From the NCBI GenBank assembly GCA_012813795.1, contig GCA_012813795.1_4087.1: DNA of 64,000 bases; one strand, 5' to 3'. Below the pieces are notes generated by a model. The model ran no database searches. It worked only from the letters and a program-made list of their open reading frames with translations, and was not told where the DNA came from. Each line of letters opens with the position of its first letter. Position 1 is the first letter of the stretch. Source of the DNA: a phage. This document shows positions 1-63,853 of this stretch, piece by piece. Both the position numbers and the translations under genes were made by a program.

Positions 1-1220
1 CAAGAATAATTGATGATGTTATCGATGCATGTACCGTTCGTGAAGGTGACAGTACTAGCGTTCGTCAATTTGTTAATATAATCCCACTTAAACAATATGT
101 TGGTTTTGATAATTTACGTAACACATCAGTATATAAAGTTATTTTTAATATTGTTCGTTTTCGTATTGGTGATGTTGTCCATGAATCCGATTTACAGCCA
201 GAAAACTTTAACTTCGAGACATTCCTAGAAAACTCTGAACGTTATCTTGACCCTAGAGATAATGAAGAAAAGTTAAGAATGAAAATATACAATTATCAAT
301 TCAGTGGATTGAATAATGAAATATTAGATTTGGATATGAATTTCGACCAACAATTTTATGTAGCTACTACACGTAACCCAGGCCCAATACAAGACCAAGG
401 TAACAGAAGTGGTACACATGCATCACAAGAATTGACCATACAAGGGGTTCAATATAGTAACCCGTTGGATGCTTGGAATAAAACTAGTGATATAAGAAAA
501 GCACGAAGTAAAGGTGAAATTATAACACAAGCCCAAACAGCTTTACTTAATGAAATAGATGAGCAATTAAAAAATGCAATGGGTGTGGGTAATCAAGCAG
601 AACAAGATGCTTATATGAATTATAAAGTTCATGTCCTTCCTGAATACATTGAAGATTATCGTAGTGTATATGAAGAAAATGATATGGGTGCTGATGGTAT
701 TGGCGACCGTAGAGGTGAAATATTCACTATACCAACTGAAGCAACAAATAACCATACAACCTTATCAGCATCTGATAACGATAATAGCAGTACATATGAA
801 ATGGACAGACGTAAAATACGCGACAACTATTATAACCGTCCATTTATGTGTAAGTTGGATATGCGTGTTATTGGTGACCCATATTGGTTGGGATGGGGTG
901 ATCATGCATATCTTCAATATTTGGATATGTTGGTGAATGGTGAAGCATTATATATAAATCCAGAGGATTTCAAATATGCAAATTATATTTCAACCGAAGC
1001 ATATTTGTTATTGAAATTGCAACCTGTAGTTTCAATTAATGATAATACTGGTATTTTGGATATAACCACACCAACTACATTCAACGAAACAATCTATCGC
1101 GTAAACAAAATAATTCATGATTTTGGTACAAACGGCACTTTCACACAACAAATTCAAGGTGCTATTGTCGCTCGTGCACTTAAACGTAAAGATAGTATAA
1201 TAAACCCAGGTGGTGAGTAA
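1..1220 (+). CDS. virion structural protein of the baseplate module, 5-prime truncated at window edge (function unassigned)
   Basis: Reading frame is open from the window start (frame 3) through 1220; ORF track shows only the first internal Met at 279. Stop TAA 1218-1220 overlaps ATG of the spike gene (TAATG). Confidence 0.5.
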   Translation, partial: RIIDDVIDACTVREGDSTSVRQFVNIIPLKQYVGFDNLRNTSVYKVIFNIVRFRIGDVVHESDLQPENFNFETFLENSERYLDPRDNEEKLRMKIYNYQFSGLNNEILDLDMNFDQQFYVATTRNPGPIQDQGNRSGTHASQELTIQGVQYSNPLDAWNKTSDIRKARSKGEIITQAQTALLNEIDEQLKNAMGVGNQAEQDAYMNYKVHVLPEYIEDYRSVYEENDMGADGIGDRRGEIFTIPTEATNNHTTLSASDNDNSSTYEMDRRKIRDNYYNRPFMCKLDMRVIGDPYWLGWGDHAYLQYLDMLVNGEALYINPEDFKYANYISTEAYLLLKLQPVVSINDNTGILDITTPTTFNETIYRVNKIIHDFGTNGTFTQQIQGAIVARALKRKDSIINPGGE

Positions 1221-3883
1221 TGGCAGATACAAGTAAAAAGTTTGCAAAGGAACAGTTGGGTCGTTTTGACCCATCTTATCCACAATTAGCAACCGTTATG
1301 GATAACCGAGATCCTACGAAATCTGGTAAGCTAAAAGTATGGATACAAGGTTCACAAAGTGATAAAAACTCTAAAGATTCATGGATTGAAGCTTCATATA
1401 TGGCCCCGTTTGCTGGTAAAACCCCAGGAATACCAAGTGCAGATAGTTATGGACAGTATCCAAAAGGTTATGGTTTTTGGGCCGTACCACCAGATGTGGG
1501 ATGTACAGTTGTTGTTATTTTTGCACAAGCACGTACATTCCAAGCTTACTGGATTGGGTGTGTTTATGACCAGCGTATGAATACGATGGTTCCTGGTATG
1601 GCAACTGCTGATACAAATTACAATGGCACAGATATGCCATTACCAGTAACTGACTATGATCGTAACACAATCACAACTGACATGCAAGACAAATATATTA
1701 ACGTTCCTGCTGTTGAAGGATTGAAAAAACAAAACTTATTATACGATGATGAAGCAGGTGTTGCAAACCGCAGCAGTACTCGTCAAACAACCAGTACTGT
1801 ATATGGTATGAGTACACCTCGTGGTAATAGTTTTATTCTTGATGATGGATATACAGAAGAAGAATTGACCAAGCCAACATGGGATCAAGACCCTGATGGA
1901 TACCAAGACACACAATTTAACAACCCAGTTAATGACACTCGTGTTGGTTCCCGAAAGAATGAAGGTATTGTTATTAAAACACGTAGTGGTGCACAACTTC
2001 TTATTTCTGAAACCACTGGTAATGTTTTATTAATTAACCGTGATGGTACGGCTCGTATTAAATTCACTGGCGATGGTGATATTGAAATGCACTGTGATAA
2101 AAACATAAACATTCGTGCAGGTCAAGATATTAACATGGTTGCAGGTCGTTCTTATAATATTGAAAGTGGGCAAGACTTCAATACTCGTGTTGGTGGAAAT
2201 ACCAAACTGGAATTGGTCGGTAATTTGGATGCTAAGGTCAATGGTCAGGTTGTAATTAATTCTGGTGCTGATCTTCGTTTGGTTACTGGTGCTTCATTAC
2301 GTCTTCAAAGTGGTAGCAGTACTGATATTACGGCTGGCTCAACAGCATCTGTTAAAGGTTCATCCTCTGCAAACGTTATTGGTGGCTCATCCGTTAACAT
2401 TAGTGGTGGTGGTCAAAACCTAACAGTTGATAGTGCTGGTAACAGTGGTAGTGCTGCATTCATGGCTCCTGATTTTAAAACACCATCAGTGGGTCTTAAT
2501 GATCACATTCATATGATTGCTAACTGGAAAGATGCAGAAAACCACGGTGATAGAGTTGATCCTGGTATAAGTGGTGGTGGTCAAGGTAGTACAACATCTC
2601 CAGTTGAGCCACAACCAGCAAATGATGTTCAACCTACACTTGCAGAGCAACAAGAAACAGACGCAATTCAATTTGTAAATTATGCCCCAGAGACAAGTGA
2701 AGTTCAAACACAAGATTTAATGGCGGCTGAACCAGGAATGACTGGTTATTCGCAGACATTTGAAGGTTTGCATATGCTTATGCCATGTAGCGGTACTATT
2801 CGCCAGAATGGTTATTGGGGTAAGGGTGTAACGACCGAGAATGGAACCAAGCGTGATAGTAGTGGATGGGAAATTCAAGCCCGTGGAAGTGTGGTTGCAC
2901 CAGATGGTGGGATTGTTGGTATCAGTGGTGATGCTCTTATTATTGAACATAAATCTGGTTATAAATCTGTTTTCTATGGTTTAACTTCTGACCTATTCAA
3001 TAAAGATGTTGTTGAAAAAGGACAAGTAATAGGAACTGCTAATGGTATATTACGATTTGAAATAAGAGTTCGCTCATCTAATATCTATGGTTTTAGTGGT
3101 TCAGTTGATCCTGGATTATTCTACACAACTGTAACTGGTCAGGGTTCTGCTGCGGCGAACAAAACATTAATTGGTGGTCAACCATCAACACAAAATAACC
3201 CTAAAGATGTGGTAAGACCATCTGCTGATAGTGATGAATTAGTAATATCAACTCGAATCCGAACAATTGGAACTGGATATTCACAACGTGGTTCACGACA
3301 TGTTCCGCGTCGTAGGGAACGTAAACCTCGAAATGCAGGAACTGCACCAAAAGCAGAACAAAATTATAACGTAGGTAATGTTGATAAAACAGCAGTTGGG
3401 TGGAAAGTTGCCCCAGGTGATTCACAGTTTGTATCTGAACTTAAAGAACATGAAGGTACGATCCAATATCAAACTGCACTTGGATATTTCAGAAATGGAA
3501 AATTCTGGCGTTATATTGATAGTCGTGGTTTTCCTACAATTGGATATGGACATCTTATTGATGGTGGTGAAGATTTCTCTGGTGGTATAACTGAAGCAGA
3601 AGCTGATGCAATGCTAGTACGAGACAGTACTCAAGCAATCAATGATGCAAAATCAATATATGCTGCATGGGATTTAAAAACACCAGTTATTGCTCAACAA
3701 GTACTATGTCAAATGGTATTCCAAATGGGCAAATACAAAGTACAAAAATTCAAGGGTATGCTTGGGTGTTTAGCTAAAGGTGATTATCGTGGTGCTGCTG
3801 CTCATATTCGAAGTTCCGCTTGGTATCGTCAAACAACTCGTCGTGCTGAGTTAATGGCACGTAGAATTGAGGCATGTCAATAA
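1220..3883 (+). CDS. baseplate central spike/hub protein (gp5/VgrG-like) with beta-helical repeats, degenerate M23-like domain and C-terminal T4-type (GH24) lysozyme domain
   Basis: 887 aa. N-terminal OB-like segment; G/S/N/V-rich beta-helix-like repeats (NINIRAGQDINMVAG...); M23-like pattern (APDGGIVG...LIIEHKSGYKSVFYGL...KGQVIGTANGILRFEI) lacking the HxH histidines; C-terminus from about 3390 matches T4 lysozyme motifs (EG...IDSRG...PTIGYGHL...MVFQMG...SAWYRQTTRRA). Confidence 0.75.
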   Translation: MADTSKKFAKEQLGRFDPSYPQLATVMDNRDPTKSGKLKVWIQGSQSDKNSKDSWIEASYMAPFAGKTPGIPSADSYGQYPKGYGFWAVPPDVGCTVVVIFAQARTFQAYWIGCVYDQRMNTMVPGMATADTNYNGTDMPLPVTDYDRNTITTDMQDKYINVPAVEGLKKQNLLYDDEAGVANRSSTRQTTSTVYGMSTPRGNSFILDDGYTEEELTKPTWDQDPDGYQDTQFNNPVNDTRVGSRKNEGIVIKTRSGAQLLISETTGNVLLINRDGTARIKFTGDGDIEMHCDKNINIRAGQDINMVAGRSYNIESGQDFNTRVGGNTKLELVGNLDAKVNGQVVINSGADLRLVTGASLRLQSGSSTDITAGSTASVKGSSSANVIGGSSVNISGGGQNLTVDSAGNSGSAAFMAPDFKTPSVGLNDHIHMIANWKDAENHGDRVDPGISGGGQGSTTSPVEPQPANDVQPTLAEQQETDAIQFVNYAPETSEVQTQDLMAAEPGMTGYSQTFEGLHMLMPCSGTIRQNGYWGKGVTTENGTKRDSSGWEIQARGSVVAPDGGIVGISGDALIIEHKSGYKSVFYGLTSDLFNKDVVEKGQVIGTANGILRFEIRVRSSNIYGFSGSVDPGLFYTTVTGQGSAAANKTLIGGQPSTQNNPKDVVRPSADSDELVISTRIRTIGTGYSQRGSRHVPRRRERKPRNAGTAPKAEQNYNVGNVDKTAVGWKVAPGDSQFVSELKEHEGTIQYQTALGYFRNGKFWRYIDSRGFPTIGYGHLIDGGEDFSGGITEAEADAMLVRDSTQAINDAKSIYAAWDLKTPVIAQQVLCQMVFQMGKYKVQKFKGMLGCLAKGDYRGAAAHIRSSAWYRQTTRRAELMARRIEACQ

Positions 3884-3917
3884 ATATTTTATCCAATAAA
3901 TATTATAGGAGAAGTAT

Positions 3918-4406
3918 ATGAGTAAATGGGAAATTAAACCTGATGATGCACAGTATTTGAAAGAAATTAAAGAGTTTGAAGGTACTATTGCTTTCCAAAC
4001 TAAATTAGGTTATTTCAAGAATGGTAAATTCAGAGTTTATAAAGATAGCCTAGGACTAGATACCATTGGTTACGGTCACTTAGTACTAAAAGGTGAAAAT
4101 TTCAGTGCAGGGCTAACTGAAGCAGAAGCAGAAGCACTACTTCAAAAAGATTCCCTAAATGCATACAGAGAAGCTAACGAGATTTATGATCAATTCGGTA
4201 TGTCTGCACCAATTCAGGTACAACGTGTACTTTGGATGATGATATTCCAAATGGGTAAATCTCGTGTATTGAACTTTAAGAAAGCGATGGCAGCATTGGG
4301 TTGTGGTGATTATAAAACCGCTGGCAAAGAAATGCGTGATTCCGCTTGGTATCGTCAAACAACTTCTCGTGCTGAAAAAATGGCAAGGATTGTTGAATCC
4401 GTATAA
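3918..4406 (+). CDS. T4-type lysozyme (glycoside hydrolase family 24), free paralog of the spike C-terminal domain
   Basis: 162 aa; EFEG...YKDSLG...DTIGYGHL catalytic Glu/Asp/Thr pattern, MIFQMG and SAWYRQTTSRA motifs; RBS AGGAGA 5-10 nt upstream; clearly alignable to residues about 725-887 of the spike protein. Confidence 0.85.
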   Translation: MSKWEIKPDDAQYLKEIKEFEGTIAFQTKLGYFKNGKFRVYKDSLGLDTIGYGHLVLKGENFSAGLTEAEAEALLQKDSLNAYREANEIYDQFGMSAPIQVQRVLWMMIFQMGKSRVLNFKKAMAALGCGDYKTAGKEMRDSAWYRQTTSRAEKMARIVESV

Positions 4407-4419
4407 ATGAGGAAAGTCT

Positions 4420-4815
4420 ATGGCAATAGTTTTTAAAGGTTTCTCTACTCCTGTTGTGGGTAAAACACAAACTCTGTATGATGCTGAGTTGGTGAGACAG
4501 GATTTGATGAACCACTTCAATACAAAGAAAGGTGAAAGAGCATTTGATGCTGATTATGGTTTCATTGCTTGGGATTTGATTTTTGAACTTGATGGTTATA
4601 ATACAAAAAATCTTTTAGAAGCTGACGCTCGTAGAATTATTTCATTAGACCCACGTTTGAATTTAAAAAATCTAACAGTTAGTAATGTTGAATATGGTTA
4701 TCGTTTGGACATAATTTTAGAGTATGTAATGCTTGATAAATTAGAACAACTTACTATAGTATTCGATGCCAGAAGTAATAATAGGATGGCAACGTTTACA
4801 ACATCTAAATTATAA
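4420..4815 (+). CDS. baseplate wedge protein, gp25/GPW-like
   Basis: 131 aa; size and pattern (KGERAFDADYGF...DLIFE) resemble T4 gp25 / P2 W family as recalled; sits between spike-lysozyme and gp6-like genes as in other contractile tails. Confidence 0.65.
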   Translation: MAIVFKGFSTPVVGKTQTLYDAELVRQDLMNHFNTKKGERAFDADYGFIAWDLIFELDGYNTKNLLEADARRIISLDPRLNLKNLTVSNVEYGYRLDIILEYVMLDKLEQLTIVFDARSNNRMATFTTSKL

Positions 4816-4822
4816 TTTACTA

Positions 4823-4848
4823 AGCACTCTTCGGAGTGCTTTTCTTTT
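4823..4848 (+). terminator. rho-independent terminator
   Basis: Hairpin AGCACTC-TTCG-GAGTGCT followed by TTTTCTTTT. Confidence 0.7.
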
Positions 4849-4849
4849 G

Positions 4850-4857
4850 GATAAATA
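4850..4857 (+). promoter_or_regulatory. late-promoter-like box GATAAATA (T4-type TATAAATA-like)
   Basis: Directly after the terminator hairpin and about 55 nt upstream of the gp6-like gene; similar ATAAATA boxes recur upstream of most structural genes. Confidence 0.4.
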
Positions 4858-8412: not shown

Positions 8413-8460
8413 ATAGCATAAATAAATCAAATGAATGAACGAATTTATGGAGTCCTATAC

Positions 8461-11400
8461 ATGACTAATAATTTTAAGTTTCTACCAACTAAAACGGCAG
8501 AAGCAGTACAACAGAAGCTTTTCATTAAAAGATTACCTGAATGGATGCAAGGCTTAGAAGACATTCAAAAGGTTAGTGATGATGTAATTCAACAATGGTT
8601 CAATCCAGCGGATAATGAAATCGTTGATGGATATATTGGTGATATGGGTTCTCCTGCTGCATCTGCTAAGATTTTCCTTGACGAATCAACCGTTGAACGT
8701 CAGCTATATCAATTATCAACAGCATATGTGTCTCGTAATGATGACACAAGCATTCGTTCGCTTCAATTTTATGATGATTTGGTTGGCTACATGGAACACT
8801 ATGGCACGTTAACTTCAAACGAGAGCCGTCTATTTTCTGGTAAGTTCTATTCTTGGACACCACCAATTAACCCAAACAAAATGACCAACTATAGTTCTTA
8901 TTTGTGGGATAGTAAAAATAGTTTTGGTATCACATCACCTGACTTTATTGTTATGGAACGTGGTGCTGATAACGGTAACACTTGGTCACTACAGAACTTT
9001 TGGTATACTATTGGACAAACCCTAGAAGATGGTACAGTACTAACTGCTGACATGACGCAGGATACTCGTTTTATTCGTGCACAAGCACCAATCATCGAAT
9101 ATAATAAAAACATCGAATTAATCAACTACGGAACAAATTTCCGTGGTATTGTTGACCTATTCTCTGATACAGTTAAACCAGAAGATATCGTTCAAAAGGA
9201 CGTTAACGATGGTATTCGTATCGATGGTATCATTCCACAAGATGGTATGCGTATTCTATTCACCAGTATCGGTAACGTTGGTGAAAACAACCGCATTTAT
9301 AAAGTTTTTATAAAGAAAATGCAAGATGGTTCTCGTACCTATGGTTTGGCACTAGATCCTGACGAGGAATCAGAAGAACGCCCAAGTGGTGAACCCCATA
9401 ACGGTGATGTAATTTTGGTGCGTGATGGTAATGTATATAAAAATACATCCATGTACTGGAATGGTGTTGATTGGGTTAGAGCACAAACCAAATCTGGTAT
9501 CAACGTGTTCCCACAATTCCAATTGTATGACCGTGATGGTTTCAAATTAAACGACACTACTATGTATCCATCAAGTAATTTCGTTGGATCATCACTATTT
9601 GGTTTCAAAATTAACTATAATTATGGCACTGATAAAGTATACGGTTATAATATTGAATTAGGTAATTATAATTACTACATGTACGAAAACTTTCTTCAAA
9701 GTGTTCGTTATACATATGATCATTTGGGTGTTGAAACAGAAATTTCTGGATTATATTACTATAATGTAGTTGGTAAAGATAATGAACTTCACCTTAAGAC
9801 CGATTGGGTTCGCTCAAAGGAAGATTCAAAACAATTTGTTAAACAAACACCACAAATCGAACATACTGATATGTATCGTGTATTCAATACTGTATTTGAA
9901 ATGGAAAACTTCAAAACTCCATTAGAAGGTATGTATGCATATGTCATTGAAGTTGATCGTACCTATCAATATTACAAAGAAGAACGTCAAACCTATATGG
10001 ATTGGCATGTAATTAGTGGTGAAGGTATTCAAAGTGAACGTTTCAATCGCACATTTGAATTAGCCCAGAAAATTATTGATGGTAAGAGTACTGAAATCAT
10101 TGAAATTCAAGTTGATGGTGTGGATGTAACCGATTATACACGTCATGTATATAATAACAAGGTTCAAAGCATCACTTTAGGGGAAGACGTTACTCTTAAA
10201 GATGAATCAGTAATTCAAATTAGAACATATAGCAGTACGGAAGTACCAAATAAAGAGTTGGGTGCATATGAAATCCCAATTAACTTACAAAATAACCCAT
10301 ACAACGATAATATTCTTTATATCAACCAAAGTAATTTTACATTACATTTTAAAGATATCATTCAAAAGAATATTACCAGTGGTTCAGTTGATGATTTCAA
10401 TGACTACGAAGAGCGTTTGTCTAAAGGTTTAGTAGATAACTCTGTAGGTACTAAGATTATCCAAAACGAAGCATCTATGCTACCGTTAATGGCACATTCT
10501 GCAAATGAAGACATTGACCTATTTGAATCTGTATTGTTTATGCAATCAGAGTACTTTCGTTTTGTAAACAAGTTCAATACACAAATGATTCGTTTGTATA
10601 ATGAGAACCCAGCAAACTTCTTAGCTAATAATGCTTCTAATATTGTTGATGAAATTCTAACAATTATTAATATGGGTCATGATAATACATTCCCATTCTA
10701 TTATGACAACGTGGCAAGTACTTCTGGTTTCATTCGTGCTTTTGTACCACCAACTCCACAGTTCTTAGGTATTTTAAAAGCTCACGTTCCAGAAAAAGCA
10801 ACATTTTTGAATGCTGGTAGTAAGCAAAGCTGCTATAACATCAGCCATACTGGTGCAATCACCAAAGCATACCGTGTAATTAACGGTGTTGATAAAATGG
10901 ATGACGTTATATATGAATTAGAAAATCGAATCTTCAATAGTATTGATGTTATTTTCAAAGATGAAGATTACCAACCTAAGCTAGATGCTTCTGACCTTTT
11001 CCCTACTCCGTATTTTAGAGATACAGAGTATAATGATGAAGAGAAGAAGAACTTACTACTACGTGGTTACATTAACTTCATCGCAACCAATGGTATCAGT
11101 AACAGTTCGCATGATTATGATCCAAATAACTGGATGACTTGGAATTATACTGGAACTTATTACATTGTTAATGGTCAACAAACACAAATACCAGCACGTG
11201 GTTCATGGCGAGCAATCTACACTGACCAATTTGGTACATATCGCCCAGCAACCCATCCGTGGGAAATGTTTGGATTCTCCCAACGTCCGGTTTGGTGGAA
11301 CCAAGAGTACGAACCAACAGCAGTTCAAGTTGGTGAACGCGACAGTGATGTTGTTTATGTATATGAGGCATTGGTTCTCAACGAACAAGGTAACATGGTC

Positions 11401-14400
11401 CCTAGTGGGTTGTGGGATGTTGGTAATGAGAAAGGTGATAGCTCAACTGGAACTATCTTATTTGGTGCACGTAAAGGCCAATATGACAAGTATAAACGTT
11501 TTGGTACACAACCATTCAAGATCACCAAAACAGGCAAGCAGACTGCTTCTGGTGTTGATATTTGCGTTATTGAGTACATTGCACCTGAAGTATTAGGTCT
11601 TGTTTATGGTAGTTTGAATCATCGTGCTGAACCTTGGACCTATGGTGACATGGGTGACATGGAATTCACATACATGAACACCTCAATGTTCGCATATGAT
11701 GAATTAATGTTGTTATTCAAAGCTAAACCTGCACAATTCACCAACTATTTCTGGAATACTCGAAATAATACATTAAAAACTGTATCTGGTAACGAACCAC
11801 AGTTTTTATATGGTGATACTCGTTTACGTTTGAACTTTAACAGTGATACAATAGTACATGGTGAGAATAGCACTCGTGTTATTGGTTATCAAATGATTGT
11901 TAGTAACTATTTGATGTATCAAAACAAAAACATCACTACTAAGTACGGTGAAGTTGTTCGTTCTTCTCATATTAATGTTGGTCATAAACTAGGTGGATTC
12001 ACTAAAGCTGACCAATTAACATTTACGTCAGAAGCAACTGGTCTAATTTCACAAGAAAACCAATCTATCGGGTTAGTTCGTTCTAATAATATTAGAAATG
12101 AGCAAATGAGTGCAATTAAAATTACTTGGACTGGTAGTGCTTACCAAATTGATGGTTATGATTTAGTTTCTGCAACATTCAATTATAAATTGCCTGTTAA
12201 AAACGGTCATAAAGTAACTTTGAAAGTTGATAATCGTAATGTTGTTCATTATAATGAGTGGAAAAATGATGCATCAATCCCTTACGGAACTTTGATGAAT
12301 ACATTCCAAGAAGTTTACACATTTATTTGTGGTTATGGTGAGTATCTCAAACAACATGGTTGGATTTTTGAAGAAGTTGATGAATCTGGTATCCAACAGG
12401 ACTGGAATACAATTGCAAAAGACTTTTTAATCTGGAGTCAACAACAATTGAGTACTGGTGAATTCATTTCATGTACTCCATCTGCAATTAAAGCCAAATT
12501 TGGTACAGATTTTGGTTCAGTACAGTCAATTACACAAAATAGTGGTGGTGTTTGGTCACTATTAGATGATTCAAACCAAGGTATCCGTCAATTTGAGATT
12601 GAAACATCTCGTATTGGTAATATATTCACGGTGAGAACTACTGAAGAATCAAATAAACGCATGGCACTTATTCGTTTAAGTATCAGTTCATATGAACATG
12701 CTGTTATTTTTGATGATCAGACTATTTTCGGTGACTATATCTACGAACCAACCTATGGTGCAGTTCAAGAATTGATTAAATTGTATGGATATATCACTGG
12801 TTCATGGTCTGGTCGCTTACAAGCTCCTGGATTTATCATCCTAGAAGCTGGAACATTACCATCATTTGAAACATTGGTATCAAATTTCCAACAGTATTAT
12901 GATAATGAAACTCCAGTTAGTGATGTTCAATTGAATGAACTATCAAATCACTTAATTGGTTATCAGTCTCGCGATTACTTACAACGTATGATCACCAACG
13001 AGCCTGGTAGAATTGATTTCTATAAAGGTTTCATCCACGATAAAGGTACTAACCAAGTACTAGAAAAAGTACTACGTGTATCTAAATCATATAATACTGA
13101 TGAGTATAAAGCATTACAAGAATGGGCATTCCGAGTTGGTTCTTATGGTAACATTGATGGGGTTAAAAATCTTCAATTTAAACTAATTAATAATGAGTTT
13201 AAACAACAACCACAAATGATTTCGTTTGACCGCTATGCTGATAAGGTAGAGTCAGAGAATGAGATCGTATATTATGGTGAAATTGGTGAAGATTCACGCT
13301 GGATTAGTCGTCCTAAAGGTAAATTCTCATTACCTATGCGTAGTGGAAGAAGTGAGAACATCCAATTACCTAATATTGGCCCAGTAACCTTAGATGAAAT
13401 TGATTATACCACATTGAATTATGAAACGGCTAATCAAGATCGCATTAGTTACACGAATAACTTTGGCAAAATACCAACATCTGTTTGGATGTTCCAAGAT
13501 ATTAATAACGAATGGAATATATATGATTTGGTAGACACTGGTATTACAATGGTTTCCATTACACCAATAGAGAATAGCGACCCATATGCTGAGCAATATT
13601 GTAAAGTACTATTGTCTGATGACATCCCACTAATGGATGGTGATTATTACTATTTCGTTGATGAAACAAACTTTATGCCTGACGCACTACGTGAAGAAGG
13701 TCAATATTACACTTCTGGACTAAATCCAAAAGTTATGGTTGTGCCATTTGACACTTCTATCACTATTGACTTCTCAACTGTAGAATCAGCACCACGTTTG
13801 TATCGTTATGTTAGTAGATTCAGCACTCAACAAGAACGTGATGATTATATTGCTAAAAAATACAGTTACAGTGCACCTGAAAGTACTTTGTTTGACCGTC
13901 CTACTACGTATGATGAAAGAACAAACATCACTGCATTGTATTTGAATGTGTTTGACCCAATCAATGGTGTTATTCCTGGTGTAGCAATGCAAGATGTTGA
14001 TTTCATCTCCCCTGTTGATCCAGCACAATATAGCAGTAATGGTGAACTATTACAAGCATGGGGTGCTGAAAAGGTAGGTAAGGTATGGTGGAACACTAGT
14101 ACTGCATTCTATCTGGATTATACCCGTCCAATCTTTGATGAGGATGGAAACGTTGATGTAAAAGCAACTAATGAATATAAGCGTTATAATTGGGGTAAAT
14201 TATTACCACACAGTGTTATTGATGTTCTAGAATGGGTTAGTTCACCAGTAGAACCATACAACTGGGAAAAATATTGTGCAGAACAAGCCAATAAAAATAA
14301 AAACAACACCATGTATCTCCCAAGTGGGGTTGCGATGGATGATAACTATAGTTCATCTATGGAATATGATCCAATCACCGATACATATGTAGTTCGTTAT

Positions 14401-17400
14401 TATTTCTGGGTTCGTAATACAATTTATGTTCCACCAATGACTACTCGTAGTAAGTCTTGTACTGATATTGCACGTATTATTCAAGATCCAACACAATTGA
14501 ATGTTCCTTGGTTTGCACCTATTAACGAAAATAGTTTCATTCTAAGTAATATGCAATTTGAAGTTAATGATGATACAAGCATTTTGACAATTTCATATAG
14601 AAATGACAATATTGAAGTCCTGAAGCATGACCAATATCAACTTTGTAAAGAAGGTGATAGTTATGACTTTAACCCAGATATTTGGAATTCTCTATGGAAC
14701 TCACTAATTGGTCAAGAAACTACTTCAACTGGTGTTGTAAATGAAATAGTTTATCCTAAAGTTGAAACTGGTTTGGGTTCTAATAAAACTTGGTTCCAGA
14801 ATGTTATTGAAGCTCGTCGTGCGTTTGTTGAGAGTGCTAATAACTTTTACCGTTCACATAACATCACAACTAACAGTGTTGTTATGAATGATGTCTTTAA
14901 TGTTAAAACATTAAAAATGAACCCGAATGATATTACATTCCGTGTTCTATCATTTAACAATGAATTGGTAATTGCACCAGAAGACAACCGCTTCAAAGAG
15001 AATGATGCAGTATTTGTAAGTTCCATTGGAACATTACCAGCACCATTATCTTCAAGTTCTGTATATTTTGTTCACATTGATCCAAATGGATACATTCAAT
15101 TGATGAACAGTCCAAGCACAGTTGGTAGTACTGTCACAATCACTCTAGAAAATAGAGGCGAAGGTCAACACAAGATGATTAAACAAGCTGACTTCATTGA
15201 ATCACTTGGTACATCGTTGGATATGACACAGTACTGGAATCTAGCTGATTGGTACGATACTGGATACGATAGTAACACTGAATATACACAAGAAGTTAGT
15301 TTAGATGACGCAAACACTAAAAATTACCAAATTGGTGATATTATCCGTGTAACTGATAGTGATGGCGTTTGGACATTATACATCAAGACTGCATCTCGCA
15401 ATAATGTATACTGGAGAGCTATTGGACGTGAGAATAGTACTGTTGAATTGAATTCAATGTTATATTCTAGTTACAATGTTTATAATGATGATGGTTCTTT
15501 GAATTCTCATGAGGTTAACGTTCGTAATGCGTTAGCGTTGTTGAAAAATTCATTCGATTTATATCAAAGTAATATTGTATTTGATATGGTTAAGTACGTG
15601 CACACTGAACAAAGTGTTGTTGATTGGGTATTCAAAACCTCCTATATCTATATCGTAGGTTTGGAGCAATCACTAGTACAGAACTACTCAAATGACAACT
15701 TGATTAATCAAATTGTTGAGTACTTCGAGGAAGTTAAACCATACAGAACCAAAATCCGTTCTCAAATCGAACAGAAAACTTCTGATGATGATTTGATTAA
15801 TGGTATTAGTAATGACCTTGACCCAGATGGCTATATTTTAGTTGATGGTGTGTGGGTTAAGACTGAAAAAGACATTTGGGATTTAGAATATGCACAATTC
15901 AATGATGTAACTCAACGTTGGGAAAAGATTGGTTCACTACCAAGTGACTTTATCACACCTAATAGACGATTCCAAGAAATAGACGTTATTATGCATTATG
16001 ATAATATTCAATGTGAACAGTATGATAGTAATTATACAATTGATGAGTTGAAATCAACCAATAGTAAGTATCAATCCAACGAGGCTGATGTAGGTAATAA
16101 TTATGAATTACAGAGATATGTTTATACATTCCCTGAATATGATAATAATACCTTAATTTCACAAATTGGTATTGAAATGACTACCAAATATTCAGATTTG
16201 GATATTAGTAATGGTGTTATTAAAGGAATTGATGCATGGTATAAAGCACATTCAACTGATATCGCATCAACTGACCAATTTACTACTGATTTGGAGCAGG
16301 TAACTGCTGATACAAACAATAGTAATATTTTAGAAGATGTTAAAAAATATATTCAATATAATACATTAGCAACTCGTGTGAAAATGTTTAATAATATATC
16401 TGATGATATGGTTTCTAATGAGATTGGTTGTCCGTTTAAGGGTACAAACTATAATGATAATCCTAATACTCGCCTCCCATTCGGGTTTAGTGCAAGTAGT
16501 GATTATAACTATGGTTATTTTGAGATTAGTATTGAACTATATGAAAAATATGTCGATATGATCAAGAAAAATCACCCAGAGTTTACAAACGAAGACCAAA
16601 TTCGTAACATTCTTGAAATAGAATATGGTGTTTATTGCTACAAGTATGATACCACATTAAATGACCGTTATTATTCTGATACCGTTCATGTTTTATCTGC
16701 TATGCGACAAACATTTAATAAGAATATTCTAGATCATTATTATGTTGCTAGAGAAATCTTAAGTAATCGTTCAGTTGAGAAGTATGCTTTTGTTATGATG
16801 CCAAGAAAGTATGTGTATGTTGTGAATGCGGCGGGTGAATATCTACCGATTCCTGAAAGTTACAGCATATCTGATTTCATGGAAGACTTGTTCATAACAA
16901 CCGGAGAATCAGTTGTATTGGCTGAAATTGATTTAAATGATTTACCACAAGACCAGAATAATCCTATGTATTCTGCATACATTGAAGTACTGGAAAGTAT
17001 TAATACCGCGAAATATTTCAATGATATGAACGCATTCGATAACTTGGCATTGGAATCACAAACCAAGTCCATTAAATGGGAAGTTAAAGATAGTGAGATT
17101 GATCCTTATATCATCGACATTTCTGAACTAAACCCATCAGGAAGAACAATGGCACAATTGCGTTTCACTGTTGATGGTTATGGTTTCGATGAAGTTGCTC
17201 AAGAGCAATTAAAAGACACGAGTAGATTCCAAATTGAGGGTATGATCGTACAGAACCCTTACAATATGTCAGAAGCAATTGTAAGTATTCCATCATATGA
17301 TATTGTCATCGAGAATATGGGTAAAGATGTGTTTAAAGATTCAGAAAAATACTTCTTCCCAATTTCAGAAATTAAAACAATTACTGAAATCAAGGTTCAT

Positions 17401-18438
17401 GATGAAGGATTGAAAAATGGTGATAAGGTTGTGATTTTCACACCAGATGGTGAAGATTATGTACGATTCCAAGATGGTGAATGGGTAACTATACTAAGTG
17501 CTAGTAAAATCCAAACCTCCAAAAAACCAAAACTGTACACTGTGCGTGTATTGGGTAACGGAAACGTTGAGTTGGTTGATGGTAACGGTGTTGCATTGAT
17601 GTTTGATAGTGTAACTAAGCGTGAAAGTAATGAGCGTTTTTATACATTATCAATGAACTTAGTTAGAATCCGCACTTTCCAAGACCCTGAGTTTGATGAC
17701 AATGGCCTTAAACTATATGAAAATAATCGTCATTATAGTATACATGCATTGAACTATGAAGTATTCTATGACGAAACATTATATGGTGGTAAATTCAATG
17801 ATGGTATCACATCTGATGAGATTGATTTGTGGTTAGTTTCCAATGAGATTTTTGAAGTTGATGGTATTACAATTGATAATGGTTATAATCAACCAATCAC
17901 TGGTAAAGGTGTTCTAGGTGAACTAGTACGAGCTAAAATGACTGATGGTATTGAAATCACTGTATTTGAATACGATGTTGATGTTATTCAACCAGTACTA
18001 AGTTATGATCGCGTGTGGCAGTATGCACAACCAGTGGTCAATAACACGTTCATCAAAGAGGTAGGATGTAATGTTATTAACATTACAACTGTTGAAGATG
18101 AGGCAATCACTTATGTTGCTAAACCTCGTTCAATAAGCCCATATATCATTACTGATTCAGTACTGTCAGGTGCTGCGGCACAGAATGATGATATTATTGT
18201 GGTTGGATATGAGAAGGTTCAGGTAAGAAATACTGATCGTCTATTACGTGGTGTCATGTATAGTGCGGAGCATAATTTCACAAAAGGAACTTCTTATAGC
18301 TTCAATGGATTGAACTTAGGAAGCATTGATAAGTTTACTCAATATCAAAACTTCTATCCACCAATTCCATTAGAGACATTCAGAAATGGATTGTCAATTA
18401 CTGGAACCGATATCGAAAAACTTTTGAATATTCAATAA
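8461..18438 (+). CDS. giant virion-associated structural protein (about 3300 aa), function unassigned
   Basis: Single uninterrupted ORF; ORF track begins at ATG 8431 but ATG 8461 has a GGAG RBS and lies downstream of an ATAAATA late-promoter-like box (8418-8424). Last gene of the baseplate operon, followed by a strong terminator. Confidence 0.6.
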   Translation: MTNNFKFLPTKTAEAVQQKLFIKRLPEWMQGLEDIQKVSDDVIQQWFNPADNEIVDGYIGDMGSPAASAKIFLDESTVERQLYQLSTAYVSRNDDTSIRSLQFYDDLVGYMEHYGTLTSNESRLFSGKFYSWTPPINPNKMTNYSSYLWDSKNSFGITSPDFIVMERGADNGNTWSLQNFWYTIGQTLEDGTVLTADMTQDTRFIRAQAPIIEYNKNIELINYGTNFRGIVDLFSDTVKPEDIVQKDVNDGIRIDGIIPQDGMRILFTSIGNVGENNRIYKVFIKKMQDGSRTYGLALDPDEESEERPSGEPHNGDVILVRDGNVYKNTSMYWNGVDWVRAQTKSGINVFPQFQLYDRDGFKLNDTTMYPSSNFVGSSLFGFKINYNYGTDKVYGYNIELGNYNYYMYENFLQSVRYTYDHLGVETEISGLYYYNVVGKDNELHLKTDWVRSKEDSKQFVKQTPQIEHTDMYRVFNTVFEMENFKTPLEGMYAYVIEVDRTYQYYKEERQTYMDWHVISGEGIQSERFNRTFELAQKIIDGKSTEIIEIQVDGVDVTDYTRHVYNNKVQSITLGEDVTLKDESVIQIRTYSSTEVPNKELGAYEIPINLQNNPYNDNILYINQSNFTLHFKDIIQKNITSGSVDDFNDYEERLSKGLVDNSVGTKIIQNEASMLPLMAHSANEDIDLFESVLFMQSEYFRFVNKFNTQMIRLYNENPANFLANNASNIVDEILTIINMGHDNTFPFYYDNVASTSGFIRAFVPPTPQFLGILKAHVPEKATFLNAGSKQSCYNISHTGAITKAYRVINGVDKMDDVIYELENRIFNSIDVIFKDEDYQPKLDASDLFPTPYFRDTEYNDEEKKNLLLRGYINFIATNGISNSSHDYDPNNWMTWNYTGTYYIVNGQQTQIPARGSWRAIYTDQFGTYRPATHPWEMFGFSQRPVWWNQEYEPTAVQVGERDSDVVYVYEALVLNEQGNMVPSGLWDVGNEKGDSSTGTILFGARKGQYDKYKRFGTQPFKITKTGKQTASGVDICVIEYIAPEVLGLVYGSLNHRAEPWTYGDMGDMEFTYMNTSMFAYDELMLLFKAKPAQFTNYFWNTRNNTLKTVSGNEPQFLYGDTRLRLNFNSDTIVHGENSTRVIGYQMIVSNYLMYQNKNITTKYGEVVRSSHINVGHKLGGFTKADQLTFTSEATGLISQENQSIGLVRSNNIRNEQMSAIKITWTGSAYQIDGYDLVSATFNYKLPVKNGHKVTLKVDNRNVVHYNEWKNDASIPYGTLMNTFQEVYTFICGYGEYLKQHGWIFEEVDESGIQQDWNTIAKDFLIWSQQQLSTGEFISCTPSAIKAKFGTDFGSVQSITQNSGGVWSLLDDSNQGIRQFEIETSRIGNIFTVRTTEESNKRMALIRLSISSYEHAVIFDDQTIFGDYIYEPTYGAVQELIKLYGYITGSWSGRLQAPGFIILEAGTLPSFETLVSNFQQYYDNETPVSDVQLNELSNHLIGYQSRDYLQRMITNEPGRIDFYKGFIHDKGTNQVLEKVLRVSKSYNTDEYKALQEWAFRVGSYGNIDGVKNLQFKLINNEFKQQPQMISFDRYADKVESENEIVYYGEIGEDSRWISRPKGKFSLPMRSGRSENIQLPNIGPVTLDEIDYTTLNYETANQDRISYTNNFGKIPTSVWMFQDINNEWNIYDLVDTGITMVSITPIENSDPYAEQYCKVLLSDDIPLMDGDYYYFVDETNFMPDALREEGQYYTSGLNPKVMVVPFDTSITIDFSTVESAPRLYRYVSRFSTQQERDDYIAKKYSYSAPESTLFDRPTTYDERTNITALYLNVFDPINGVIPGVAMQDVDFISPVDPAQYSSNGELLQAWGAEKVGKVWWNTSTAFYLDYTRPIFDEDGNVDVKATNEYKRYNWGKLLPHSVIDVLEWVSSPVEPYNWEKYCAEQANKNKNNTMYLPSGVAMDDNYSSSMEYDPITDTYVVRYYFWVRNTIYVPPMTTRSKSCTDIARIIQDPTQLNVPWFAPINENSFILSNMQFEVNDDTSILTISYRNDNIEVLKHDQYQLCKEGDSYDFNPDIWNSLWNSLIGQETTSTGVVNEIVYPKVETGLGSNKTWFQNVIEARRAFVESANNFYRSHNITTNSVVMNDVFNVKTLKMNPNDITFRVLSFNNELVIAPEDNRFKENDAVFVSSIGTLPAPLSSSSVYFVHIDPNGYIQLMNSPSTVGSTVTITLENRGEGQHKMIKQADFIESLGTSLDMTQYWNLADWYDTGYDSNTEYTQEVSLDDANTKNYQIGDIIRVTDSDGVWTLYIKTASRNNVYWRAIGRENSTVELNSMLYSSYNVYNDDGSLNSHEVNVRNALALLKNSFDLYQSNIVFDMVKYVHTEQSVVDWVFKTSYIYIVGLEQSLVQNYSNDNLINQIVEYFEEVKPYRTKIRSQIEQKTSDDDLINGISNDLDPDGYILVDGVWVKTEKDIWDLEYAQFNDVTQRWEKIGSLPSDFITPNRRFQEIDVIMHYDNIQCEQYDSNYTIDELKSTNSKYQSNEADVGNNYELQRYVYTFPEYDNNTLISQIGIEMTTKYSDLDISNGVIKGIDAWYKAHSTDIASTDQFTTDLEQVTADTNNSNILEDVKKYIQYNTLATRVKMFNNISDDMVSNEIGCPFKGTNYNDNPNTRLPFGFSASSDYNYGYFEISIELYEKYVDMIKKNHPEFTNEDQIRNILEIEYGVYCYKYDTTLNDRYYSDTVHVLSAMRQTFNKNILDHYYVAREILSNRSVEKYAFVMMPRKYVYVVNAAGEYLPIPESYSISDFMEDLFITTGESVVLAEIDLNDLPQDQNNPMYSAYIEVLESINTAKYFNDMNAFDNLALESQTKSIKWEVKDSEIDPYIIDISELNPSGRTMAQLRFTVDGYGFDEVAQEQLKDTSRFQIEGMIVQNPYNMSEAIVSIPSYDIVIENMGKDVFKDSEKYFFPISEIKTITEIKVHDEGLKNGDKVVIFTPDGEDYVRFQDGEWVTILSASKIQTSKKPKLYTVRVLGNGNVELVDGNGVALMFDSVTKRESNERFYTLSMNLVRIRTFQDPEFDDNGLKLYENNRHYSIHALNYEVFYDETLYGGKFNDGITSDEIDLWLVSNEIFEVDGITIDNGYNQPITGKGVLGELVRAKMTDGIEITVFEYDVDVIQPVLSYDRVWQYAQPVVNNTFIKEVGCNVINITTVEDEAITYVAKPRSISPYIITDSVLSGAAAQNDDIIVVGYEKVQVRNTDRLLRGVMYSAEHNFTKGTSYSFNGLNLGSIDKFTQYQNFYPPIPLETFRNGLSITGTDIEKLLNIQ

Positions 18439-62576: not shown

Positions 62577-62909
62577 TTACTCTTCTTCGTCAGTTACATC
62601 AACTACAACTGGACGGTCTGGATGGTTTCGGTGGTGCAATTTAATGCTTTTGTCTTTACTGAATACAGTTTCCATTTTTTCGAATGAATCGACAATCGCC
62701 TTGTATAAATCTGCATCATCGGCAGTAACAGACTTACCACCTGATGTTAAAGTTACTGCGTACTGTGTCTTATGCTCTTTTTTCACATGAACACCAATAT
62801 TCAGTACTGAAGAATCACTAAATTTATTTAGAGTGTTTGCTTCTTGATGAATTGCGTCATGGATTGCTGGAGTAATATCAACATTACCTTGAATAACTAG
62901 ATTTAGCAT
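62577..62909 (-). CDS. hpf: ribosome hibernation promoting factor / RaiA-family homolog
   Basis: 110 aa; LNLVIQGNVDITPAI...VHVKKE...VTLTSGGKSVTADDADLYKAIDSF...KLHH follows the HPF/YfiA pattern as recalled from E. coli HPF; followed by a hairpin terminator. Confidence 0.75.
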   Translation of the reverse strand: MLNLVIQGNVDITPAIHDAIHQEANTLNKFSDSSVLNIGVHVKKEHKTQYAVTLTSGGKSVTADDADLYKAIVDSFEKMETVFSKDKSIKLHHRNHPDRPVVVDVTDEEE

Positions 62910-62923
62910 ACTTCACCTTCCTT

Positions 62924-63853
62924 TTATATTGAGCTTAACAAAGTATCCGCTCTGTTTGTTACTTGCCTATACCATAAGGAATTTTTGATTTCTCTTTTAA
63001 ACTTCTTATGATTTTCAGCTTCAGCACTTCTCCATAGTTTATTAAATGAGGCCAACTTATCAACACCCATCGTGTAAGCCATGTCAAAGAGAATACGTTG
63101 TTGGTCTTTTGTAAGATTTACTGCATTTTTTTTCTTCATTAGAGTTGTAAAGTCATTATATGTCCTTTTCAAATCTTGAAGTAATAGTTTATGTGCTTGT
63201 GCTTTGGTAATACCGTTTCTGTACTTAATTGCATCAGATTCACGTGGACCGAGGTAGTGACCATATGCGATTGTGTAGTTACCTTTCATATCCTTATAAG
63301 GATGAAATTTTGAATTGTAGAAAGGAACTCCAACTTTTCCCCCAAGTAAACGTCTTTTGTTCTTGGACTGAAATTCAATTGAACCTTCAGCTTCTTTGAT
63401 GTGTGCTACTATTTCAGGATCATTATAATCGAAAAGTACTACCACATCAGGTAACAGTACGTCTTTCAAATCCTCTTTTGTTGGGATAAAGATACCCTGC
63501 GATGTATGAAGTTTAGCATTAAGATTGATATTCTTCAATACTGTAACGTAATCATCTAACAACACATTATGCGGTTTAAACTTCTTAGCTATCGAATGAT
63601 AACTATCACCGTATTCAACAGTATAATGTTTCTCGCTGCCCGGAACTACTTTAGGTGTATACCCTTTGGGTAATTCCTGCTTTTGAATTTGTGTAACTTG
63701 CGGTTTTAAATTGTGCACCTGACTTTCGCCCGATGATGATGCACGACCATGATGAGAAAAACCATAAAAAAATCCAAACGCAGCGATGATAACAAGTGAA
63801 ACTAATAAGCCTATGGCTGTCTTAGTTTTAGGTGTTTGTATCGCTATTGTCAA
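62924..63853 (-). CDS. membrane-anchored LysM + T4-type (GH24) lysozyme (candidate signal-anchor endolysin)
   Basis: 309 aa; N-terminal hydrophobic segment (AIGLLVSLVIIAAFGFFYGF), LysM-like YTVEYGDSYHSIAKKF, C-terminal lysozyme motifs (EAEGS...YKDMKG...YTIAYGH...LWYRQVTNRA). Start is TTG with a GGAGG RBS 5 nt upstream. Confidence 0.7.
   Translation of the reverse strand: MTIAIQTPKTKTAIGLLVSLVIIAAFGFFYGFSHHGRASSSGESQVHNLKPQVTQIQKQELPKGYTPKVVPGSEKHYTVEYGDSYHSIAKKFKPHNVLLDDYVTVLKNINLNAKLHTSQGIFIPTKEDLKDVLLPDVVVLFDYNDPEIVAHIKEAEGSIEFQSKNKRRLLGGKVGVPFYNSKFHPYKDMKGNYTIAYGHYLGPRESDAIKYRNGITKAQAHKLLLQDLKRTYNDFTTLMKKKNAVNLTKDQQRILFDMAYTMGVDKLASFNKLWRSAEAENHKKFKREIKNSLWYRQVTNRADTLLSSI

Follow-up and report, generated by a model that had tools for sequence, protein, structure and literature searches.

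Why should the puncturing device of a phage tail carry a domain of the M23 peptidase fold from which the catalytic residues are gone, joined to an intact lysozyme domain, and why should a second lysozyme gene lie directly behind it? These questions are raised by a locus near the start of a 64,000-nucleotide stretch of phage DNA (NCBI GenBank assembly GCA_012813795.1, contig GCA_012813795.1_4087.1), here called the window. The two plus-strand open reading frames (ORFs) reported in a preliminary description of the window were found where it had placed them: a spike gene (1220–3883, 887 amino acids) and a gene for a free lysozyme (3918–4406, 162 amino acids). The window is 96.3% identical to Escherichia phage A4 (Asteriusvirus) across 8.4 kb, whereas its identity to further jumbo coliphages, such as PBECO4, 121Q and phAPEC6, is about 77%. 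The spike gene is 96% identical in DNA to A4_584, its product is a full-length match to phrog_13211 with homologs in the virions of CBB and phAPEC6, and NCBI already contains a 99%-identical protein. The 887-residue protein is the tail spike with which a jumbo coliphage of the Rak2/121Q type, a myophage, punctures the cell.

A degenerate LytM domain conserved without its zinc site

The segment suspected in the preliminary description of being an inactive M23-like module corresponds to residues 508–657 of the spike (2741–3190, plus strand). Pfam family PF01551 (Peptidase_M23) aligned with residues 555–608 at 21.0 bits (E = 3.9e-4), under the cut-off of 28.7, and a profile of the spike family matched M23 structures in the PDB significantly (4e-7). 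The fold-match figures include Csd3 (13.3), StM23 (13.2), Vibrio cholerae EnvC (13.2) and DipM (12.9), followed by lysostaphin (12.1), SpoIIQ (11.9), PrgK (11.7), LytM (11.7) and phi29 gp13 (11.2), and Foldseek concurred with a LytM/M23 fold. In a fold search of a viral library, M23 folds were common among phage tape-measure, internal and lysin proteins.

The catalytic positions were mapped twice, against the sequences of lysostaphin, LytM and EnvC, and against canonical M23 sequences taken from an exhaustive profile search (e.g. P0157 and P0181). MAFFT was used for the former, as hhalign aligned only 18 columns of the family profile with the single lysostaphin sequence. The two mappings agreed. 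The ligand positions of the HxxxD motif correspond to S547 and E551, the catalytic His of the YxH motif to G587, and the HxH positions to I610 and R612, these last three positions being covered by an alignment with SpoIIQ as well. In a set of 88 full-length homologs, 70 have Arg and five have His at position 547, and only two have Asp at position 551. Since all five metal-binding or catalytic residues are lost, the domain is unable to act as a canonical zinc peptidase. The comparison with M23 and LytM proteins therefore recovered the proposed fold and the proposed loss of zinc ligands, with no intact HxxxD or HxH pair.

Other residues of the domain are strictly kept: W550, G580 and R616 in 88 of 88 homologs, and H577 and E614 in 87. 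The ratio of nonsynonymous to synonymous substitution rates (dN/dS) of the segment is 0.06 against A4 and 0.18 against PBECO4, the synonymous sites being near saturation in the latter comparison. The invariant residues and the low dN/dS indicate a conserved, non-catalytic domain and not a decaying relic, as expected if the dead module had been retained in a non-catalytic role. In a search of 1.84 billion representatives, this dead variant was present only in spikes of 870–1000 residues, with seven representatives at E ≤ 3e-39 and the next match at 8e-18. Judged from its sequence, the M23-like module is a conserved degenerate LytM domain that is catalytically dead.

Could the domain still be an enzyme, acting through a non-canonical site made up of, for example, H577, E614 and E551? 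The near invariance of H577 and E614, and the Glu found at the Asp-ligand position in the window, would fit such a site. However, H577, E614 and R616 are scaffold positions in canonical M23 enzymes too, where they are not ligands, position 551 is Ile in 50 of the 88 homologs, and His is absent from positions 587, 610 and 612 in all 88. We consider this explanation very improbable.

Parts of this picture have been published. The published Rak2-like homologs belong to the same gene family and share its gene order (RaK2 gp078 with gp073 and gp029; CBB_240 with CBB_239 and CBB_187; phAPEC6 gp241; A4_584 with A4_583), at 55–99% protein identity and 77–96% DNA identity to the window. Passages of the 2013 RaK2 paper describe three related lysozymes, ORF029, ORF073 and ORF078, and count the 886-residue gp078 as one of the largest lysozymes of a baseplate. 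[quoted passage not shown] The corresponding passages of the 2017 CBB paper treat CBB_238, CBB_239 and CBB_240 as a trio, and mention that CBB_240 and its homologs may have an M23 domain in their central part (Pfam E = 6.5e-4).

The absence of metal ligands from the M23-like domain was not found to be stated anywhere in the open-access literature, including the RaK2 and CBB passages, and the passages on these homologs in the Rak2-like phage papers make no mention of a date for the duplication or a regulatory role for the spike LytM domain. Nor was any open-access paper found on a degenerate LytM domain on a phage spike, or on a phage amidase activator. The architecture and the lysozyme paralogy are thus already published, while the loss of metal ligands in a conserved degenerate LytM domain seems to be new. 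It sharpens the annotation, in that "peptidase" is the wrong name for the M23-like module, and suggests that peptidase activity is not to be expected from this domain when jumbo phages are mined for lysins as enzybiotics.

The spike and the possible roles of its LytM domain

The remainder of the spike shows what the dead domain is attached to. An OB-fold domain of the gp5/VgrG type occupies residues 23–116 (1286–1567, plus strand), with a PF04717 score of 29.4 bits above the cut-off of 23.8 and a weak alignment to the OB region of VgrG. A triple beta-helix region follows at residues ~250–400 (1967–2419, plus strand), where DUF2345 scores 30.3 bits, just under its cut-off of 30.7. The family profile of the N-terminal 470 residues matched VgrG (7e-6) and a gp5-type spike (9e-4) among solved structures. 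An AlphaFold2 (AF2) monomer of these 470 residues was poor (mean confidence, pLDDT, 56.8, reaching 74–87 only across the helix stretch; overall template-modelling score, pTM, 0.31), so the N-terminal architecture rests on the profile and family matches, and the model was left out of the fold search.

These matches substantiate the gp5-like OB/beta-helix architecture that had been proposed. T4 gp5, like this protein, is a trimeric spike that unites an OB fold, a triple beta-helix and a GH24 lysozyme. Its lysozyme, however, is placed after the OB fold and before the helix, and there is no LytM domain. As the lysozyme of the present spike is C-terminal to the helix, the spike is gp5-like in its parts but not in its layout.

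Just past the beta-helix lies an HxH motif (H429 and H431; 2504–2512, plus strand), which is invariant in an alignment of 40 homologs. The spikes P2 gpV and phi92 gp138 provide the general background for suspecting a metal-binding apex at such a motif, and residues 429–431 are a candidate for one. The motif aligned marginally (E ~0.05–0.09) with HTHKH near the end of the solved tail-tip protein gp86 (9zd7). An apparent match to VgrG1 was rejected, since it is to a His-tag. The chain nevertheless runs for about 450 residues beyond the HxH motif.

Two linkers frame the LytM domain. Linker 1 (residues 436–507; 2525–2740, plus strand) is Gly/Pro-rich with a conserved PANDV motif, and has the highest dN/dS within the spike gene (~0.3). 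Linker 2 (residues 658–727; 3191–3400, plus strand) contains the conserved motif ELVV-x-T-x-V-x-SIGSGYSQRGS-xx-VPRR, followed by a basic run; V675, G691 and P696 are invariant in the homolog alignment. The motif could be a docking strand, a docking helix or a cleavage site.

Remoter spikes share the OB fold and helix chassis only (P0088, P0095, P0098, P0101, P0103, P0112, P0117, P0092 and P0105), and their C-terminus is a GH24 domain alone, a GH19 (chitinase-like) domain, an M15 peptidase, or nothing. With such varied C-termini on a shared chassis, the end of the spike has the look of a cell-wall payload that can be exchanged, much as in the "evolved" VgrG proteins. These, of which V. cholerae VgrG3 is an example with a C-terminal enzyme, resemble this spike and related phage spikes in carrying the enzyme after the beta-helix, while VgrG also has a gp27-like part.

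Degenerate LytM domains have so far been known from the bacterial machineries of division, sporulation and conjugation, in which they dock or regulate cell-wall hydrolases. Amidases are activated by EnvC and NlpD (reviewed in the LytM literature). In DipM, the groove docks and stimulates an amidase and lytic transglycosylases, and binding requires the Arg equivalent to R616 (DipM paper). PrgK, from the secretion system of pCF10, has a muramidase whose activity is lowered by a degenerate LytM domain next to it in the same polypeptide.

The spike domain resembles those of EnvC, NlpD, ActS, DipM, SpoIIQ and Csd2 in being a LytM fold without a metal site that is conserved under selection. In those proteins the groove of the dead site is the functional surface, and the Arg of EnvC R405/DipM R589 is invariant in the spike. 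They are, however, factors of the cell itself, serving its division, shape or sporulation and often paired with coiled-coil or LysM domains, whereas the spike domain is fused to a muramidase and, judging from the homologs, virion-borne. PrgK differs in belonging to Gram-positive conjugation, in having an SLT-fold muramidase and a CHAP domain and no spike, and in being homologous only in the LytM fold. The tail-tip M23 domains of phi29 gp13 and Tuc2009 Tal2009, from phages of Gram-positive hosts, are listed in a review as endopeptidases (gp13 with an H(x)7D motif); here, by contrast, none of the catalytic positions is kept, and the domain is carried by the spike of a contractile tail.

The explanation that we prefer, with confidence somewhat above even, is that of a trimeric spike bearing a C-terminal payload of dead LytM domain and muramidase, with the free lysozyme acting as a soluble, non-structural enzyme. 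Residues 1–~435 would form the puncturing device, consisting of the OB fold, a conserved middle region and the triple beta-helix ending at the HxH motif. From the domain order we infer that the two-domain payload would hang by a flexible linker from the C-terminal end of the helix, no enzyme being inserted before the helix. Tail contraction would then carry the payload into the periplasm, where the muramidase would open the cell wall locally. The groove around the LytM domain's former active site may dock a partner, as in EnvC, NlpD, DipM and PrgK, and the likeliest partner would be the adjacent muramidase, restrained or positioned until deployment, as reported for PrgK.

The spike LytM variant was found only together with this GH24 domain. 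This, together with the behaviour of the class (partner docking, and the effect in cis in PrgK), leads us to favour, as a tentative component of the preferred explanation, that the LytM domain may regulate or position the tethered muramidase in cis. If it does control the muramidase, the spike would represent a second solution, beside T4 gp5, for keeping a tail lysozyme quiet until penetration.

The conserved groove scaffold (H577, G580, F613, E614, R616 and D630-P631) would also suit a domain that regulates no enzyme. Here the former substrate groove would anchor the tethered lysozyme on peptidoglycan stem peptides, M23 grooves being known to bind stem peptides or cross-bridges (review), or the domain would serve in packing round the spike tip, where three copies per trimer could make a collar. 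This was the suggestion of the preliminary description, and it requires no extra partner. However, the characterized degenerate LytM domains in the literature examined work by protein–protein docking, and an indirect effect via peptidoglycan binding was tested and rejected by the DipM authors. Moreover, W550, invariant and specific to this family, sits where the metal used to be bound, and this points to a new ligand and not to the old substrate. Taken together, the binding and structural variants are credible but rather unlikely.

The docking partner could instead belong to the host: after delivery to the periplasm, the LytM domain would mimic EnvC, NlpD or ActS, dock the amidases AmiA, AmiB or AmiC, relieve their auto-inhibition, and so enlist them in opening the wall at the entry site. 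The groove residues considered were K321, V324, Y350, V353, V355, Y401 and R405 of EnvC, numbered in agreement with the DipM paper. The counterpart of R405 (also DipM R589) is the invariant R616, and that of V324 is position 551, which is mostly Ile. K321 corresponds to position 548, which is N, Y or S and not conserved, Y401 to the variable position 612, and the loop of Y350 is shortened in the spike. No specific EnvC signature was found, the matches being a generally conserved Arg and one hydrophobic position only.

Active M23 enzymes match the fold equally well, LasA and SpoIIQ are better matches by sequence profile than EnvC, which is a weak one (E = 0.04), most of the residues that EnvC needs for activation are not conserved (K321, Y401 and the Y350 loop), and no paper on such a mechanism was found in the open-access literature. 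Mimicry of the amidase activators is therefore improbable. The broader proposal, that a virion-delivered dead LytM domain would dock host autolysins (AmiA/B/C or lytic transglycosylases) and switch them on locally, fares slightly worse, given the equal fold match of active M23 enzymes and the mostly unconserved EnvC residues. If true, it would be a new phage entry mechanism, a breach made with host enzymes and the phage's own lysozyme, and docking to host autolysins would make the domain a natural, constitutively active amidase activator. We thus rank regulation or positioning in cis first, peptidoglycan binding or a structural role second, and activation of host autolysins last.

Tethered, free and anchored lysozymes

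The tethered GH24 lysozyme occupies residues 728–887 of the spike (3401–3880, plus strand), and matches gp5 and T4 lysozyme in the PDB. Pfam family PF00959 (Phage_lysozyme; cut-off 22.3) scored 34.7 bits for the tethered domain (residues 765–882) and 35.2 bits for the free lysozyme. The T4 lysozyme residues E11, D20 and T26 correspond to E745, D767 and T773 in the spike, and to E21, D43 and T49 in the free protein. The Asp and Thr line up with gp5 as well. In both copies, ~13 extra residues are inserted between the Glu and the Asp. The spike thus ends in a complete T4-type lysozyme domain with its triad in place, as had been described.

Alignment of the two copies gave 84 identical residues out of 158 (E = 6e-57), which confirms that the free lysozyme is a paralog of the tethered domain; their DNA in the window is 62% identical. 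Both copies are under purifying selection, as measured by dN/dS. The Thr equivalent to T26 is kept in 10 of 10 free copies, versus 14 of 19 tethered copies. In several lineages, e.g. EJP2, Munch, P0010, P0015 and P0019, the tethered Thr is replaced by D, N, S, I or V (residues 767–778 compared), and in the lineages with a replaced Thr the tethered lysozyme diverges faster than the free copy.

A third GH24 paralog of 309 residues was found by tblastn at the far end of the window (62924–63853, minus strand; PF00959 E = 1.9e-11, LysM E = 0.017). A transmembrane segment at its N-terminus is followed by a LysM-like stretch and a GH24 lysozyme; the protein is 30–32% identical to the tethered and free copies, and has the same insertion between Glu and Asp. 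It is the predicted endolysin of this phage group, its sequence features matching the description of CBB_187 in the CBB paper. The earlier picture of one tethered and one free muralytic enzyme is correct in that both are present, but incomplete, as there is a third, membrane-anchored paralog.

The age of the duplication was addressed by neighbour joining, in trees that combined the tethered, free and anchored lysozymes of eight phages and several metagenomic contigs. One clade (bootstrap 98% and 89% in two analyses) united the free copies of Asteriusvirus, RaK2, GAP32, CBB, XbC2, Munch and EJP2, with the same internal branching pattern as is seen among their tethered counterparts. The two copies thus parted before these genera did, and they have not been homogenized; no gene conversion between tethered and free copies is visible in the trees or at 62% DNA identity. 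On this phylogenetic evidence, the duplication is older than the genera involved, Asteriusvirus, Alcyoneusvirus and Mimasvirus among them. A "local duplication" had been proposed from the two genes; the paralogs are indeed adjacent, but the shared clade and the 62% DNA identity do not support a recent event. Free copies are also present beside the P0084 and P0077 spikes, with uncertain placement by neighbour joining.

T4 likewise has a free GH24 paralog, T4 lysozyme (gene e), which lies elsewhere in the genome and is the endolysin. In T4 the free paralog is therefore a non-adjacent endolysin, whereas here the free paralog is adjacent and the membrane-anchored third copy is the predicted endolysin. 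The free 162-residue lysozyme is an ancient tandem duplicate of the tethered domain, with the canonical catalytic residues preserved. No signal or transmembrane segment was found in it, and its setting is not a holin/spanin lysis cassette, as it is flanked by the spike gene and a gp25-like baseplate wedge gene (4420–4815, plus strand; PF04965 E = 3.9e-9; phrog_43).

The published virion proteomes point away from the virion as the place of the free lysozyme. The spike was detected in both CBB and phAPEC6 virions, and homologs of the free lysozyme in neither; for phAPEC6, gp241 (the spike) is present, and gp242 and gp243 are not. The passage on the trio in the CBB paper likewise states that, in Rak2-like phages, the gp25-like protein and the spike alone are confirmed as structural. 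A soluble, non-virion role late in infection is most likely for the free lysozyme, fitting both the proteomes and the canonical residues, and it would act as a non-structural muramidase beside the membrane-anchored third paralog.

The genetic setting suggests a different possibility, namely that the free lysozyme serves, in few copies, in the baseplate or its assembly and not in lysis. Its gene lies between the spike and gp25-like genes in one apparent transcription unit, which the gp25-like gene closes. A terminator-like hairpin followed by a T-run stands directly after the gp25-like gene (4822–4851, plus strand; stem of 8 bp, loop TTCG, T-rich tail; identified by consensus scan only). As such a hairpin is found only 3' of the gp25-like gene, the free lysozyme is probably co-transcribed with the baseplate genes. 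The position of the free gene is conserved across genera, and low-copy baseplate proteins are easily missed by mass spectrometry. Against this role stand the absence of the free lysozyme from the virions in which the spike was detected, in the proteome data cited above, and the comparison of gene orders. No free lysozyme lies between the spike and gp25 genes in Vibrio phage 2.275.O or the P0080 and P0076 contigs, and the lineages without it (L009, L010 and L012) keep the same baseplate gene order. In RaK2 (L003, 1711–3494), four small ORFs spanning 1.8 kb separate the free gene from the spike gene. The position in a baseplate operon and the low sensitivity of the proteomes keep a low-copy structural role in consideration, but we regard it as unlikely.

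Gene order and neighbouring features

The spike, gp25-like and gp6-like genes have a conserved order in the baseplate cluster of the relatives. The ATG of the spike gene overlaps the stop codon of an upstream structural gene, and the spacer between the spike and free lysozyme genes is 34 nucleotides long and includes an AGGAG ribosome-binding site for the latter. The upstream structural gene is listed as an ORF from position 279, which gave the appearance of a frameshift. Its frame is open from the start of the window and identical to that of A4, so the apparent frameshift is an effect of the window edge and was rejected.

A T4-type late promoter upstream of the free lysozyme gene was considered as well, as AATAAATA is present there. 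The T4 late-promoter octamer TATAAATA, however, has one match in the 64-kb window versus 8.4 expected from shuffles, and because of this depletion the idea was dropped. By this count, the late promoters of this phage must differ from those of T4. In the close relative A4, a late sigma factor is annotated beside this region.

Downstream of the gp25-like gene lie a gene for a 1154-residue wedge protein and, directly 3' of it, a single ORF of 3335 residues (8431–18438, plus strand). A giant gene of more than 3000 residues occupies the same position in relatives, with 1318 residues in one that is cut by the contig end. Its counterpart in phAPEC6, gp245, was found in virions. At the other end of the window, directly downstream of the third lysozyme paralog, a gene of 110 residues (62577–62909, minus strand) matches Ribosomal_S30AE (Pfam E = 3.8e-10). 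By this match, its product would be a phage-encoded HPF/RaiA-like protein of the ribosome hibernation/sigma-54 modulation family.

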